This document shows positions 18,911 through 23,211 of a stretch of 23,211 nucleotides of DNA, in pieces. The first letter of the stretch is position 1; the number at the start of each line of letters is the position of its first letter. Origin of the DNA: a virus (lineage: Duplodnaviria; Heunggongvirae; Uroviricota; Caudoviricetes). Location: the IMG/VR virus record IMGVR_UViG_2563366999_000003, positions 1 to 23,211 of that record; one strand, written 5' to 3'. The notes below the pieces were generated by a model. It did no database searches. It was not told the origin of the DNA and worked only from the letters and a program-made list of their open reading frames with translations. Position numbers and translations under genes: made by a program.

Positions 18911-19510
18911 ATGCGTAAATTATGTGCTGTTATTCTGTCCGCAGTAGTCTGGCTGGTTGCCGCTGGTACGCCAGCGAGCGCAGCAGAGCATCAGTCCACA
19001 CTAAGCGCCGGGTATCTTCAGACCCATACTGATATGCCAGGCAGCGATGACCTGAAGGGCATTAACGTGAAATACCGTTATGAATTTACGGACACGCTGG
19101 GGCTGGTGACGTCATTCAGCTATGCAGGAGACAAGAATCGCCAGCTGACCCGTTACAGCGATACCCGCTGGCATGAAGATTCCGTGCGTAACCGCTGGTT
19201 CAGCGTGATGGCGGGTCCGTCTGTACGCGTGAATGAATGGTTCAGTGCGTATGCGATGGCGGGTGTGGCTTACAGCCGTGTGTCGACCTTCTCCGGGGAT
19301 TATCTGCAGGTGACCGACAGCAAGGGGAAAACGCACGATGTGCTGACCGGAAGTGATGACGCTCGCCACAGTAACACCTCTATGGCGTGGGGAGCTGGCG
19401 TGCAGTTTAACCCGACCGAATCGGTGGCCATTGATGTCGCTTATGAAGGTTCCGGCAGTGGCGACTGGCGCACTGACAGTTTCATCGTAGGTGTCGGTTA
19501 TAAATTCTGA
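18911..19510 (+). CDS. lom: Lom outer-membrane protein (Ail/Lom/OmpX/PagC family beta-barrel), lysogenic-conversion moron
   Basis: ATG 18911 preceded by GAGAGG; signal peptide MRKLCAVILSAVVWLVAAGTPASA followed by AEHQSTLSAGY...; ends with the typical C-terminal aromatic beta-strand (VGVGYKF). Matches lambda Lom. Confidence 0.93.
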   Translation: MRKLCAVILSAVVWLVAAGTPASAAEHQSTLSAGYLQTHTDMPGSDDLKGINVKYRYEFTDTLGLVTSFSYAGDKNRQLTRYSDTRWHEDSVRNRWFSVMAGPSVRVNEWFSAYAMAGVAYSRVSTFSGDYLQVTDSKGKTHDVLTGSDDARHSNTSMAWGAGVQFNPTESVAIDVAYEGSGSGDWRTDSFIVGVGYKF

Positions 19511-19558: not shown

Positions 19559-19569
19559 GTGGGGTGAAT

Positions 19570-22500
19570 ATGACGGTTAAGATTTCAGGTGTACTGAAAG
19601 ATGGAGCAGGCAAACCGGTACAAAACTGCACCATTCAGCTAAAGGCCAGACGCAACAGCACCACGGTGGTGGTGAACACGGTGGCCTCAGAAAATCCGGA
19701 TGAAGCCGGGCGTTATAGTATGGACGTTGAGTATGGCCAGTACAGCGTCACCCTGCTGGTTGAAGGTTTTCCGCCTTCGCATGCCGGGACCATCACAGTG
19801 TATGAGGATTCAAAGCCGGGTACGCTGAATGATTTTCTCGGCGCAATGACGGAGGATGATGCCCGTCCGGAGGCACTGCGCCGTTTTGAACTGATGGTGG
19901 AAGAGGTGGCGCGTAACGCGTCCGCAGTGGCACAGAATGCGGAAGCCGCGAAGAAGTCAGCCAGCGATGCCAGCACATCTGCCAGTGAGGCGGAAACCCA
20001 TGCGACTGATGCTGCAGACTCAGCACGCGCAGCCAGCACGTCAGCCGGACAGGCTGCATCATCTGCTCAGTCAGCATCTTCCAGCGCAGGAACAGCATCA
20101 ACAAAGGCCACTGAAGCCTCAAAAAGTGCTGCCGCTGCAGAGTCCTCAAAAAGTGCGGCGGCCACCAGTGCCAGTGCCGCGAAAACGTCAGAAACGAACG
20201 CGGCAGCGTCACAACAATCCGCAGCCACCTCAGCATCCACCGCGACCACGAAAGCGTCAGACGCTGCCACCTCAGCCCGGGATGCGGCGGCTTCAAAAGA
20301 GGCGGCAAAATCATCAGAAACGAGCGCAGCCTCGAGCGCCAGTAGTGCAGCTTCCTCGGCTACGGCGGCAGGAAATTCCGCGAAGGCGGCAAAAACGTCC
20401 GAGACGAACGCCAGGGCTTCTGAAACGGCAGCGGAACAGAGTGCCTCCGCAGCAGCAGACTCAAAAACAGCGGCTGCGTCGTCTGCCAGTGCCGCGTCAA
20501 CAAGTGCCGGGCAGGCCTCAGCCAGTGCCACCGCCGCCGGGAAATCGGCGGAAAGCGCGTCGTCATCAGCGACAACAGCTACCGCAAAAGCGACTGAGGC
20601 GACGAATCAGGCTACAGCTGCTAAAAATTCAGCATCGGCAGCAAAATCCTCTGAAACAAATGCAAAGACTTCAGAAGACAATGCCGCTTCCTCTAAGGCG
20701 GCAGCTGCTGAATCTGCAAGTTCTGCGTCTGCATCAGCCACCTCGGCGTCCGCTTCAAAAGATGAGGCGATCAGGCAGGCGTCAGCTGCGAAGGGTAGTG
20801 CTTCAACGGCATCCACGAAAGCAACAGAGGCGGCAGGCAGTGCGACGGCTGCATCTCAGAGCAAAACTGCTGCTGAATCCGCTGCGACCCGTGCGGAAGC
20901 TGCTGCTGATCGTGCTGAAGAGATTGCCGGTGCGGTTGCGATGGAAGACGCAAGCCTTACCACTAAAGGTGTTGTGAAACTTAGCAGTGCTGTCGACAGC
21001 ACCAGTGAATCGCTGGCCGCAACGCCAAAGGCAGTTAAAGCAGTCAATGACAATGCGAACAGCAGGGTGCCATCTGACCGAAAAATTAACGGGAAAGCAC
21101 TGACTGGGGATATCACATTAACGCCGAAAGATATTGGTACTTTAAATTCAGTAACGATGTCTTTCTCTGGCGGGGCTGGGTGGTTCAAACTGGCTACGGT
21201 TACCATGCCACAAGCGAGTTCCATCGTTTACATCACATTGATTGGTGGTGCCGGATACAACGTCGGCTCCCCACAGCAGGCAGGTATTTCAGAACTGGTT
21301 CTACGAGCAGGCAATGGAAACCCCAAAGGGATTACCGGAGCTTTGTGGAAGCGTACAGCCGTCGGATTAACGAATTTCGCCTGGATCAACACATCCGGCG
21401 ATACATATGATATTTACGTTGAGACTGGCAATTATGCGACGAGTGTAAATATCCATTGGGATTGTACTGCAAATGCGTCAGTTTCTGTTTATACATCGCC
21501 AGCCTATTCAGCGAGTAAGCCTTCCGGCGTTACCGATGGTGTTGTTTATACGATGTATAGCTCACATCAGAAACCTACACCATCAGATATTGGAGCACTG
21601 CCAACAACCGGAGGAACAGTTTCAGGTCCGTTGTCTGTTACTGGTGGGATCACCGGGGCACTGAAGGGGAACGCCGATACCGCGACGAAACTTGCGGCAG
21701 CCAAAAAAATTAACGGTGTTAAGTTTGATGGCTCGGCGGATATTAATCTCACGCCGGAAAATATTGGTGCATTTGCCCTACGTGCGACGGGGGCTTATGC
21801 GGATTCGGATGGAGCCGTTCCGTGGAATGCTGAATCCGGTGCATATAATGTCACGCGTTCTGGCGACTCCTGTCTTGTTGCAAACTTTTATACCGGTGTG
21901 GGGAGTTGCCAGACTCTCCAGATTCGCGCTCATTACAAGAATGGCGGTCTGTTTTACCGTTCTTCGCGTGATGGTTATGGCTTTGAGGAAGACTGGACTC
22001 AGATTTATACCAAAAAAGACAGCATTCCGGGAGTAAATACGACAGGTAACCAGAACACTACGGGTAATGCGGCAACAGCTACAAAACTACAGACGGCAAG
22101 AACTATCGGCGGTGTGAGCTTTGATGGTACTGCGAATATTAACTTGCCTGGTGTTAATACGACTGGTAACCAGAGCACTACAGGCAATGCAGCTACTGCC
22201 ACGAAGTTGCAGACAGCGCGTACTATTAATGGCGTGTCGTTTGACGGTTCGGCAAATATTTCTCTGTCACCAGCAAATATTGGTTGCCCGGCATCTCCAA
22301 CTGGCTGGTTAGGCACAGGGAGTAATGGTGCATCAATAACAACGGCTCAGTTAGTGACGATATTGCAGAATAATGGTGCCTTCAATACAAAAGCATGGGT
22401 GGCACGCTGTGCCTGGGCATACGCTGACAGCGCCTCCATACCAGACAGTGAAACAGGCTGCGGCATTATTCCACTGGCGGGGGCGGTGATAGAAGTATTC

Positions 22501-23211
22501 AGCCACAGTGCAACTTATTACACCATTCGAATAACAACAGCCACGACGACAAGTGTCTCTGGCGCACTCACTAATGCGGAATTTATCTATGTGTTTAATG
22601 GCACAGCTTATTCCCCCGGATGGCGTCGTGCACTGAACACAAAGAAACTGCCCACACCGCTTGAAATTGGCGCTTACAGCATATCGGAGATTAACCAACT
22701 CAATAAAAGTTTTATCACGTCATCAAAACTCGAAGGCGGCTCGTTAGATGCAAACTTCCAGACGTTAAGTTGTTATTATTTGCAAATATTCGACATTCAG
22801 ACAACAACCGATAGTCCTAACATGTTCGTAAGTCCGGTTGCTGGTTACAACATGGTATTTCGTTCGACTTCATCCCGTCGATACAAGACGGATATCGAGT
22901 CTTTAGAGAACAGGTACGCGGACGAGTTGTTGAAACTTCGTCCTGTATGGTATCGCTCGACTTGTGAAAGGGACAGAAAGGACTGGGGACATTATGGCCT
23001 TATTGCAGAAGAAGTCGGAGAGATAGCACCGCAATATGTTCACTGGCGTCCTCTTACAGACGAGGATGATCCAGGTATAGCGTCTGATAATGGGATGGTT
23101 GCAGAAGGCGTGATGTATGACCGTCTGGTTGTTCCACTCATTCATCATATTCAGAAACTGACAAAAAGGGTTGAGGAGCTTGAAGCAAAGTTAAAGCTAT
23201 CCGAGCTATAA
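19570..23211 (+). CDS. stf: Side tail fibre protein Stf (1213 aa from ATG 19570): lambda-Stf-like N-terminus, Ala/Ser-rich shaft, fibre repeats, divergent distal tip, C-terminal intramolecular-chaperone-like autoprocessing domain
   Basis: N-terminus MTVKISGVLKDGAGKPVQNCTIQLKARRNSTTVVVNTVASENPDEAGRYSMDVEYGQYSV matches lambda Stf. ATG 19570 has GGGG 5 nt upstream; an in-frame GTG at 19564 would add 2 aa. Uninterrupted ORF to the TAA at the last 3 nt of the window. C-terminal about 115 aa resemble endosialidase-type intramolecular chaperone (peptidase S74) domains. Confidence 0.92.
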   Translation: MTVKISGVLKDGAGKPVQNCTIQLKARRNSTTVVVNTVASENPDEAGRYSMDVEYGQYSVTLLVEGFPPSHAGTITVYEDSKPGTLNDFLGAMTEDDARPEALRRFELMVEEVARNASAVAQNAEAAKKSASDASTSASEAETHATDAADSARAASTSAGQAASSAQSASSSAGTASTKATEASKSAAAAESSKSAAATSASAAKTSETNAAASQQSAATSASTATTKASDAATSARDAAASKEAAKSSETSAASSASSAASSATAAGNSAKAAKTSETNARASETAAEQSASAAADSKTAAASSASAASTSAGQASASATAAGKSAESASSSATTATAKATEATNQATAAKNSASAAKSSETNAKTSEDNAASSKAAAAESASSASASATSASASKDEAIRQASAAKGSASTASTKATEAAGSATAASQSKTAAESAATRAEAAADRAEEIAGAVAMEDASLTTKGVVKLSSAVDSTSESLAATPKAVKAVNDNANSRVPSDRKINGKALTGDITLTPKDIGTLNSVTMSFSGGAGWFKLATVTMPQASSIVYITLIGGAGYNVGSPQQAGISELVLRAGNGNPKGITGALWKRTAVGLTNFAWINTSGDTYDIYVETGNYATSVNIHWDCTANASVSVYTSPAYSASKPSGVTDGVVYTMYSSHQKPTPSDIGALPTTGGTVSGPLSVTGGITGALKGNADTATKLAAAKKINGVKFDGSADINLTPENIGAFALRATGAYADSDGAVPWNAESGAYNVTRSGDSCLVANFYTGVGSCQTLQIRAHYKNGGLFYRSSRDGYGFEEDWTQIYTKKDSIPGVNTTGNQNTTGNAATATKLQTARTIGGVSFDGTANINLPGVNTTGNQSTTGNAATATKLQTARTINGVSFDGSANISLSPANIGCPASPTGWLGTGSNGASITTAQLVTILQNNGAFNTKAWVARCAWAYADSASIPDSETGCGIIPLAGAVIEVFSHSATYYTIRITTATTTSVSGALTNAEFIYVFNGTAYSPGWRRALNTKKLPTPLEIGAYSISEINQLNKSFITSSKLEGGSLDANFQTLSCYYLQIFDIQTTTDSPNMFVSPVAGYNMVFRSTSSRRYKTDIESLENRYADELLKLRPVWYRSTCERDRKDWGHYGLIAEEVGEIAPQYVHWRPLTDEDDPGIASDNGMVAEGVMYDRLVVPLIHHIQKLTKRVEELEAKLKLSEL
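19915..20930 (+). repeat. Low-complexity Ala/Ser/Thr/Lys-rich periodic region of stf (predicted helical shaft)
   Basis: About 340 codons dominated by A, S, T, K, E. The motif AAK(T/S)SET(N/S)A recurs with its K codon at 20182, 20308, 20392 and 20644, i.e. spacings of 126, 84 and 252 nt, all multiples of 42 nt (14 codons). Confidence 0.8.
22030..22269 (+). repeat. Two tandem 120-nt (40-codon) tail-fibre repeats within stf
   Basis: Unit 1 22030-22149 (GVNTTGNQNTTGNAATATKLQTARTIGGVSFDGTANINLP) and unit 2 22150-22269 (GVNTTGNQSTTGNAATATKLQTARTINGVSFDGSANISLS). A more degenerate copy lies upstream (GNADTATKLAAAKKINGVKFDGSADINLTPENIGA, about 21660-21780). Confidence 0.9.

Follow-up and report, generated by a model that had tools for sequence, protein, structure and literature searches.

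The side tail fibre gene of the lambdoid prophage analysed here carries two successive 40-codon units that encode nearly the same peptide in clearly different DNA, which raises the question of how such a pair arose and what has kept its peptides alike. A sequence-only reading of the 23,211-nucleotide stretch that we analysed as a whole (the window) had proposed an old duplication under purifying selection, possibly accompanied by selection against a perfect direct repeat. The explanation that we favour, with a probability of roughly 0.82, is that the units are successive copies of a 40-residue shaft module, derived from an old duplication or in-register joining, in which the peptide has been constrained and the silent sites have been randomised.

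Organisation of the fibre gene

The features relevant to this question are given below.

19564..23211, plus strand: side tail fibre gene of a lambdoid prophage, 1215 aa (ORF list, Pfam and RefSeq annotation of the A25 locus)
21667..21750, plus strand: unit 0, a solo partial unit comprising module residues 12-39, GNADTATKLAAAKKINGVKFDGSADINL (hmmsearch, tblastn)
21695..22025, no strand: mosaic segment between two homology breakpoints (blastn, array layouts)
21760..22029, plus strand: knob domain of ~90 residues between unit 0 and unit 1 (PDB 8ju3, Pfam gp37_C, DNA matches)
22005..22316, minus strand: antisense ORF of 103 codons across the repeats (mechanical ORF listing)
22030..22149, plus strand: unit 1, codons 823-862, GVNTTGNQNTTGNAATATKLQTARTIGGVSFDGTANINLP, continuing type (G27, N38, P40)
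22150..22269, plus strand: unit 2, codons 863-902, GVNTTGNQSTTGNAATATKLQTARTINGVSFDGSANISLS, terminating type (N27, S38, S40), last unit of the array
22264..22284, plus strand: exit motif LSPANIG, leading from the last unit to the tip domain (regex on the translated ORF)
22270..22625, plus strand: distal tip domain, common to SSU5/P1-like phage-plasmid fibres, 79-84% nt identity (blastn against loci)
22870..23040, plus strand: C-terminal intramolecular chaperone domain Peptidase_S74, aa 1103-1159 (Pfam, E=4e-8)

The gene starts with a prophage tail fibre N-terminal domain (Pfam phage_tail_N, PF08400, aa 3-136, nt 19570-19971, E=2e-72), and an ORF of the Lom family (18911-19510) was listed upstream of it. 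In E. coli A25, where the locus is near-identical, RefSeq annotates gpJ, Ail/Lom and tail fibre in this order, so that both the N-terminal domain and the place after J and lom are those of a lambda-type Stf. No separate downstream tfa gene was found: the next gene in A25 encodes a DUF1653 protein, and the window stops at the stop codon of the fibre gene. In place of tfa, the C-terminus of the fibre itself carries the Peptidase_S74 intramolecular chaperone.

Unit 0 was 68% identical to the query unit when the latter was searched against the window (tblastn, E=7e-9). With N at position 27, it belongs to the terminating units, and the exit motif LTPENIG (21748-21768) comes after it; the pattern L[ST]PxxIG occurs after both other terminating units of the ORF (regex; 21118-21138 and 21748-21768), while the string PANIGCPA was found directly after the last unit in 10 distinct arrays. 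The knob is related to the fibre domain of Mu S, P1 S and P2 H, with matches to the Mu tail fibre S structure (PDB 8ju3, E=3e-23) and to Pfam gp37_C (E=5e-7), and its DNA was 73-79% identical to Mu, D108, P2-like and P1 fibres.

Divergence of the two units and of their positional counterparts

Tandem Repeats Finder placed 1.9 copies of a 120-nt period at 22036-22260, with 73% matches and without indels, and both units lie in the frame of ORF 19564-23211 with an exact period of 40 codons and 0% indels. In a codon-by-codon recount, 14 codons were identical, 21 differed only synonymously and five changed the amino acid, in close agreement with the earlier estimate of about 22 and 5; the residue changes (N9S, G27N, T34S, N38S and P40S) were exactly those listed before, and all nine codon pairs cited as examples were present. 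The 36 differences over 120 nt were distributed as 8, 4 and 24 among first, second and third codon positions. The codon alignment of 22030-22149 against 22150-22269, which had been proposed as a check together with an estimate of dN/dS, yielded 25.5 synonymous differences over 31.5 sites (pS 0.81) and 10.5 non-synonymous differences over 88.5 sites (pN 0.119, dN 0.129; Nei-Gojobori), a strong excess of synonymous change (Fisher p = 8e-13). With pS above 0.75, dS is saturated and uncorrectable, hence no dN/dS can be given for the paralogous pair, orthologue comparisons were used instead, and the age of the duplication is bounded from below only.

The extent of this saturation was evident from independent back-translation of both peptides, which gave 84.1 +/- 3.4 identical positions compared with the 84 of 120 observed. 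Likewise, the longest exact run in the pair was 10 nt, compared with 9.9 +/- 2.8 in back-translated sequences and 11.1 +/- 2.8 when codon columns were shuffled. Silent sites are therefore fully randomised, and all the DNA similarity that is left follows from the shared peptide.

When the repeats were compared with those in related fibre genes, as the sequence-only reading had also proposed, the units paired by position and not within the gene. Unit 1 was 89-90% identical at the nucleotide level to unit 1 of phage-plasmid fibre genes (pN 0.00) and unit 2 was 88-91% identical to their unit 2 (pN 0.01-0.02), whereas the neighbouring units 1 and 2 of the window gene shared just 70%. In the same direction, pS between the window and the counterparts in loci L003-L015 was 0.39-0.42 for unit 1 and 0.31-0.44 for unit 2, against 0.81 for the paralogous pair (in the nearest-neighbour comparison, the window units were represented by the identical L001). 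Hence, the pair does not consist of homogenised, concertedly evolving repeats; since each unit is nearer to its positional counterpart than to its neighbour, the duplication predates the split of the lineages and was not followed by homogenisation.

Constraint on the peptide could be estimated from these orthologues. Each unit showed 0-1 amino-acid change, with 1-2 non-synonymous differences over 177 sites and 22-27 synonymous differences over 63 sites (Nei-Gojobori), which corresponds to a dN/dS of about 0.01 and, together with the positional orthology, upholds the proposal of an old duplication under purifying selection. The adjacent tip was looser, with 16-21 non-synonymous differences over 269 sites (Fisher p = 4e-4 to 4e-3) and a dN of 0.06-0.08 compared with 0.006-0.011 in the units. 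Silent divergence between orthologues was also smaller in the units (dS 0.47-0.64) than in the tip (1.0-1.5; p = 0.002-0.03), a difference that one common history with strictly neutral silent sites does not explain.

Under the explanation that we favour, the duplication (or in-register joining) is older than the split of the lambdoid prophage gene from SSU5/P1-like phage-plasmid fibres. The peptide has since been held nearly invariant while the silent sites were completely randomised, with unit 1 as a unit that continues (followed by GVN...) and unit 2 as one that terminates (N27, then LSPANIG into the tip).

Module exchange and the weighing of alternatives

The gene is mosaic around the repeats. 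In blastn comparisons with loci L004-L018, the window matched at 20103-21695 (88-95%) and at 22025-22625 (79-84%), with nothing in between, which places one breakpoint inside unit 0 and the other at the start of unit 1. The phage-plasmid relatives, which lack the knob in otherwise collinear genes, have 55 nt in place of these 330 nt, resulting in an uninterrupted array of one partial and two full units. Across loci, one and the same tip type was preceded by 2, 2.75 or 3 units. Furthermore, unit 2 of L002 is a hybrid that matches unit 2 of L017 in its 5' part (28/30 nt) and unit 3 of L017 in its 3' part (41/46 nt), which implies the loss of one unit and, hence, that neighbouring units do recombine in this family. 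The arrays may serve as length-adjustable, in-register adaptors where knob and tip modules are swapped by recombination.

These exchanges bear on the suggestion that silent changes were themselves favoured because recombination would remove a perfect 120-nt direct repeat. Recombination between neighbouring units, the range of 2 to 3 units before one tip type and the short longest run in the window pair (10 nt, whereas efficient RecA-dependent exchange generally calls for far longer identity) are all in its favour. However, we consider it very unlikely, as the pair sits at the neutral saturation ceiling and not past it, and neighbouring units in the family have diverged less at their silent sites than randomly paired units (median pS 0.71 vs 0.78, Mann-Whitney p = 0.001), with pS below 0.5 in 26% of 50 distinct neighbouring pairs from related fibres and in 6% of random pairs. 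Near-identical neighbours also persist, for example in L025 (92% nt identity, 35-nt exact run) and L027 (47-nt run). Time alone accounts for the data, and selection against DNA identity is refuted as a necessary cause; with divergence equal to the random expectation and neighbours more alike than random pairs, this part of the sequence-only reading was unsupported. An origin by mosaic assembly, in which the units were joined in register by recombination between two fibre genes and their silent divergence reflects separate ancestries, also seems unlikely. Homology breakpoints at unit positions (21695 and 22025), the occurrence of one tip domain behind arrays with differing unit contents and entry modules, and the presence of the unit in 25 or more otherwise distinct fibre families are all in line with it, but the phage-plasmid relatives already possess unit 1 and unit 2 side by side in this order, so that any such joining must also be old. 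Moreover, it would still require the same purifying selection for peptide identity; it is compatible with the favoured explanation and would alter only the first origin of the pair.

A feature other than the fibre, for example an antisense gene (ORF 22005-22316) or a functional element in the RNA or DNA, is a most improbable source of the conservation. Although the repeats lie within a 103-codon antisense ORF, 24 of the 36 differences fall at third positions of the sense frame, which are saturated, and the constraint thus tracks the sense reading frame only. Related loci were devoid of any stop-free antisense frame (1-12 stops in every antisense frame of seven orthologous or related loci); the ORF was rejected as a gene and is a by-product of repeat composition. 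A tandem pair with a near-constant peptide and scrambled silent sites is, instead, the ordinary signature of an old, constrained module duplication: such a contrast between synonymous and non-synonymous change is usual for old, structurally constrained tandem repeats, and special anti-recombination selection is not needed.

Unit types, spread of the module and relation to known fibres

Within arrays, G27, N38 and P40 mark a unit that is followed by another one, while the last unit is recognised by N27 and a variable end, a rule obeyed by about 97% of over 400 units. Position 27 was G in 96/96 non-last units and in 0/95 last or solo units, and 94/96 non-last units had P40. When an independent set of proteins, some of them from marine metagenomes, was examined, units with G27 were followed by another unit in 148/153 cases, compared with 2/71 for those without it. 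The window pair obeys the rule (G27/P40 in unit 1, N27/S40 in unit 2). As unit 1 is continuing and unit 2 terminating, most of their residue differences reflect the place in the array, and three of the five are position-specific signatures rather than drift. Their position-specific nature had been overlooked in the sequence-only reading.

We tentatively propose, as a possibility that we rate as doubtful, that the unit carries a simple, previously undescribed continue/stop grammar kept from E. coli prophages to marine phages, in which G27 and an NLP end would call for another unit, and N, S or A at position 27 followed by [ST]PxxIG would mark the exit to a knob or tip; recombination could thereby lengthen or shorten the shaft and exchange receptor-binding tips without loss of register. 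No account of such a rule emerged from literature searches. If true, the module would be a natural and predictable splice point for engineering chimeric fibres. In any case, a single residue tells internal from terminal units, and the unit flags shaft segments and module junctions in tail fibre genes that are hard to annotate. It also shows the natural cut-and-rejoin points of fibres (here 21695 and 22025), of use for host-range engineering and prophage fibre annotation.

The consensus of the module was GVNxxGNQxT[TS]GNAATATKLQTARTI[G/N]GVSFDG[ST]ANIxLP, with a shorter pattern GVNxxGNQ..GNAATATKL..R.I.G..FDG..NI. Both window units scored 90-91 bits against the module HMM and carry all 15 invariant columns (G1, V2, N3, G6, Q8, T10, A17, L20, T22, R24, I26, G28, F31, G33 and I37) of an alignment of 24 diverse units (A1) that includes them. 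Arrays of 1-5 copies occur in many unrelated phage tail fibres. The unit matched 2596 database proteins, the 80-aa two-unit segment matched 25 PHROG families, and the unit was present in all but one of 80 viral loci, a set pre-selected by fetching with a repeat-containing query. Matches by tblastn comprised fibres of P1, P7, SSU5, Goslar, 9g and T4-like phages, and further ones of Acinetobacter, Aeromonas, Shewanella, Roseobacter, cyanophage and Bacteroides phages. Judged by these matches, the unit is a promiscuous shaft module whose range extends from P1 and SSU5-like fibres as far as T4-like and marine phages. Searches of Pfam-A and NCBIfam gave no model for the 40-residue unit, and a literature search with its peptide strings returned nothing relevant.

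With regard to structure, the unit profile matched the C-terminal spike of phage L Dec (6e3c, residues 97-131, E=2.5e-4) and the PhiM1 fibre gp47 (8vbx), although the region of gp47 with the motif was left undescribed in the PhiM1 paper. In monomeric Dec the spike is unfolded, and almost all contacts within the trimer are made by this element; AlphaFold2 and CD point to three antiparallel strands in each protomer, in a structure that was modelled and not solved experimentally at atomic level (PMC11398494). An AlphaFold2 monomer model of 21640-22330, based on a 19-sequence alignment, was of low confidence (pLDDT 59.7) and showed only one short hairpin (RTI/VSF) per unit. We infer that the constraint on the unit may stem from packing in an intertwined homotrimer, in which each unit would form one beta-structured shaft segment, by analogy with the homologous trimerisation spike of Dec.

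Tandem beta-rich repeats of some tens of residues have long been known in fibre shafts (PMC1079782). The beaded shaft formed by the "complex" repeats of T4 gp37/gp12 resembles the present array in the kind of tandem repeat, and the Pfam gp37_C match concerns the adjacent knob only. Identity to the unit is 57% in some T4-like distal fibre subunits and 90% over 29 residues in gp37 of Acinetobacter phage 133. The "phage tail fibre repeat" Phage_fiber_2 (PF03406), considered as the family of the unit, was rejected, as neither of the two units nor the 260-aa region matched it at E <= 10; it shares with the unit the occurrence of a short repeat in the same proteins, but has another motif, DSTSESLAATPKAVK..., found at residues 1-28 of P0031. 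Phage L Dec carries one copy of the motif, NAETADKLSTARTI...SFDGSANVTI, in the spike that makes the trimer (PMC11398494), and the PHROG head-decoration family phrog_3018 was also matched by the 80-aa segment; Dec differs, however, in its single unit, its 7-residue insertion and its nature as a capsid protein rather than a fibre. Also among the closest known systems are the tail fibres S/S' of P1/P7 and the fibres of SSU5-like and P1-like phage-plasmids, which have the same 40-residue unit in tandem. Protein identity to the two-unit query was 98% over residues 19-80 in Escherichia phage Cyrano and 84-94% in P1/P7 fibres, and about 270 E. coli plasmid records contained the two units and the tip at 80-88% nt identity. 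The phage-plasmid fibres keep the order of unit 1 and unit 2 and the PANIGCPA tip; their arrays (partial, full, full) are knob-free, whereas the window gene has a lambda-type N-terminus and, behind its partial unit, an inserted Mu/P2-type knob.

The fibre gene and its tandem units

ORF 19564-23211 belongs to a lambdoid prophage and is its lambda-type side tail fibre gene, because it combines a PF08400 N-terminus with an S74 chaperone, has a Lom-family neighbour and shares the gene order of the corresponding region of E. coli A25 (gpJ, Ail/Lom, tail fibre and then host genes as far as ybhB and bioA). The A25 fibre gene was 98.8% identical to that of the window across the 3' 2772 nt; at 3327 nt versus 3648 nt it was 321 nt shorter, and otherwise 94-99% identical. 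The window fibre also contains a long Ala/Ser-rich low-complexity stretch (19894-20958, aa 111-465), whose length varies among close relatives and part of which was absent from the viral locus L001, which carries the same gene. In A25 (L081 7665-12501), the fibre gene was followed by genes for a DUF1653 protein and a hydrolase, ybhB, an InsQ/TnpB-family gene and bioA, and no tail fibre assembly gene was found directly after it. With these genes downstream, the prophage end therefore adjoins the ybhB-bioA region, the part of the chromosome around the lambda attachment site.

Features of the fibre gene and its neighbourhood
18911-19510: Lom-family ORF, immediately upstream of the fibre ORF
19564-23211, + strand: side tail fibre ORF (1215 aa, 3648 nt; ORF list)
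aa 3-136 of the fibre ORF: prophage tail fibre N-terminal domain (Pfam PF08400, E=2e-72)
22030-22149, + strand: unit 1, codons 823-862 of ORF 19564-23211
22150-22269, + strand: unit 2, codons 863-902 of the same ORF
21118-21138, 21748-21768, 22264-22284: exit motif L[ST]PxxIG, after each terminating unit of the window fibre
aa 1103-1159 of the fibre ORF: C-terminal Peptidase_S74 intramolecular chaperone (Pfam)

Tandem Repeats Finder detected an indel-free 120-nt period over 22036-22260 (73% matches). In the codon alignment of the two units, 14 codons were identical, 21 differed by synonymous changes only and 5 changed the amino acid (N9S, G27N, T34S, N38S and P40S, from unit 1 to unit 2), which is within one codon of the approximately 22 synonymous and 5 residue-changing codons counted in the sequence-only reading, whose examples were also correct. 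The units differed at 36 of 120 nt, with 24 of the differences in third positions, and the longest exact run shared was 10 nt. Nei-Gojobori proportions were pS = 0.81 (25.5/31.5) and pN = 0.12 (10.5/88.5; Fisher p = 8e-13), in line with the claim that the protein repeat is conserved while the DNA repeat has drifted. Since pS exceeded 0.75, dS of the pair is undefined and the silent sites are saturated.

As a null model, each codon of both peptides was redrawn independently according to the codon usage of the fibre gene itself. Observed values matched the expected ones for nucleotide identities (84 vs 84.1 +/- 3.4), identical codons at conserved residues (14 vs 12.1 +/- 2.7) and the longest exact run (10 vs 9.9 +/- 2.8, or 11.1 +/- 2.8 with the order of codon columns shuffled). 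The shared peptide imposes all the DNA similarity between the units, and their divergence is at the random level, neither above nor below it. An antisense ORF at 22005-22316 was rejected as a gene, as it is not open in relatives; the third-position pattern showed constraint that tracks the sense frame only.

Age of the duplication and exchange between units

The nearest relatives of the window units were the units in the same position in the phage-plasmid loci L003-L015, both for unit 1 (89-90% nt identity, pS 0.39-0.42, pN 0.00) and for unit 2 (88-91%, pS 0.31-0.44, pN 0.01-0.02). No paralogous comparison approached this similarity, and the copies therefore cluster by position, not by genome. 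The duplication is older than the split of the window gene from the phage-plasmid fibre genes, and no concerted evolution has taken place since. Across both units, orthologues showed 1-2 non-synonymous differences over 177 sites and 22-27 synonymous differences over 63 sites (dN 0.006-0.011, dS 0.47-0.64, dN/dS ~0.01), whilst the adjacent distal tip (22270-22625) had a dN of 0.064-0.083 (16-21 non-synonymous changes in 269 sites). The proposal of an old duplication under purifying selection is upheld by this homologue comparison, in which both the positional match, at 88-91% nt identity, and the orthologue dN/dS are independent of the pair itself. Between orthologues, silent divergence was also lower in 22030-22269 than in the tip (dS 1.0-1.5; Fisher p = 0.002-0.03), which could reflect a later exchange of the unit block, weak silent-site constraint or noise.

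The feature is real and was rightly described, and its main interpretation was right; the added suggestion of selection against a perfect direct repeat is unnecessary, given that the divergence lies at the neutral ceiling and that neighbouring units are more alike than random pairs. Among 50 distinct neighbouring pairs, pS ranged from 0.32 to 0.94, with a median of 0.71 compared to 0.78 for pairs from different loci (Mann-Whitney p = 0.001), and pS was below 0.5 in 26% and 6% of them, respectively. Neighbours in L025 (4684-4923), L027 (3097-3336) and L069 (3085-3324) were 81-92% identical in nucleotides, with exact runs of 35-47 nt, and are apparently young duplications or conversions within other fibre genes; the L025 pair (4684/4804) had 100% protein identity, 92% nucleotide identity and a 35-nt run, and the L027 pair shared a 47-nt run.

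Unit 2 of L002 (3529-3648) was a hybrid with respect to L017 (3205-3444): its first 30 nt matched L017 unit 2 at 28/30 positions and unit 3 at 19/30, its last 46 nt matched unit 3 at 41/46 as against 28/46 for the alternative, and the middle was patchy. The one-unit difference between these loci is consistent with loss or gain through unequal exchange of neighbouring repeats, and recombination between units is a real process in fibre arrays. The PANIGCPA tip followed 2, 2.75 or 3 units, depending on the locus. The overall picture is one of unit birth-and-death, with silent drift afterwards.

Array position and spread of the module

Scanning viral contigs with the translated region yielded 80 loci, a set enriched for the module because the query contained the repeat, and in 79 of them a unit profile search detected the unit within the fibre ORF. 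The 169 arrays held 1-5 units each, often starting with a partial unit (residues 11-40). Among de-duplicated units from these loci, position 27 was G in all 96 units followed by another, and N, A or S, never G, in all 95 last or solo units. At position 40, 94/96 non-last units had P and last ones varied; at position 38, the residue was N or D if another unit followed and mostly S, T or E if none did. In an independent protein set, a 'GV..' unit came next after G27 in 148/153 cases and after non-G27 in 2/71. By these rules, window unit 1 is a 'continuing' unit and unit 2 a 'terminating' one, and three of the five amino-acid changes (G27N, N38S, P40S) are signatures of array position. The exit motif at 21118-21138 is preceded by a degenerate unit, RKINGKALTGDITL, unscored by the unit profile.

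A 230-aa repeat-containing query matched 2596 proteins in a large protein database, including TARA and GOS marine sequences made of the 40-residue unit; the metagenome proteins P0035, P0042, P0043, P0056 and P0107 consisted mostly of 3-5 tandem copies, and several obeyed the G27/N27 rule. An 80-aa segment matched 25 PHROG families, which were tail fibres in nearly every case but included one head-decoration family, and tblastn hits to the unit lay in fibres of P1, P7, SSU5, Goslar, 9g and some T4-like phages, as well as of Acinetobacter, Aeromonas, Shewanella, Roseobacter, cyanobacterial and Bacteroides phages. Judging from these matches, the module is conserved far outside enterobacterial phages. 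The unit had no match to a curated model in Pfam-A or NCBIfam, and PF03406, 'phage tail fibre repeat', was discarded as its identity, being a different motif. The window units are an ordinary example of a tail-fibre shaft module that is widespread and apparently uncurated.

Probable structural role and mosaic organization

In a structure search, a profile from 24 diverse units matched two solved entries, the C-terminal spike of phage L Dec (6e3c residues 97-131) and the PhiM1 fibre gp47 (8vbx residues 313-353), each with a 7-residue insertion. The Dec spike (~36-40 residues) is unfolded as a monomer and accounts for almost every contact in the trimer; its structure is modelled rather than solved at the atomic level, with AlphaFold2 and CD indicating three antiparallel strands per protomer and a packed core (PMC11398494). 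Tandem 'complex' repeats of fibre shafts have an old link to beaded shaft structure (PMC1079782). The AlphaFold2 monomer model of 21640-22330 was poor (pLDDT 59.7), and only a short RTI/VSF hairpin was repeated per unit. We infer, on good grounds, that the unit probably forms part of a trimeric shaft.

The window matched the phage-plasmid loci at 88-95% over 20103-21695, at 79-84% over 22025-22625 and at 75% in the chaperone region. The first and second of these blocks are separated by 330 nt, represented by only 55 nt in the phage-plasmid loci, that code for the last part of a solo partial unit (21667-21750) and a ~90-residue knob related to the Mu S, P1 S and P2 H fibres (PDB 8ju3, E=3e-23; Pfam gp37_C; DNA 73-79%). 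Both breakpoints, 21695 and 22025, are at unit positions, which fits the long-held view, as cited from Sandmeier (1994), of conserved fibre motifs as exchange points. These breakpoints at unit edges and the continue/stop residue rule are the sole mildly new points of this analysis. L019, L028 and L034-L040 carried an inverted second copy of the repeat region downstream of the fibre gene (e.g., L028 6635-6398), a layout that is expected where the alternative ends of a fibre are invertible (Mu G / P1 C-segment type); the P1 and P7 matches sit within annotated invertible segments.
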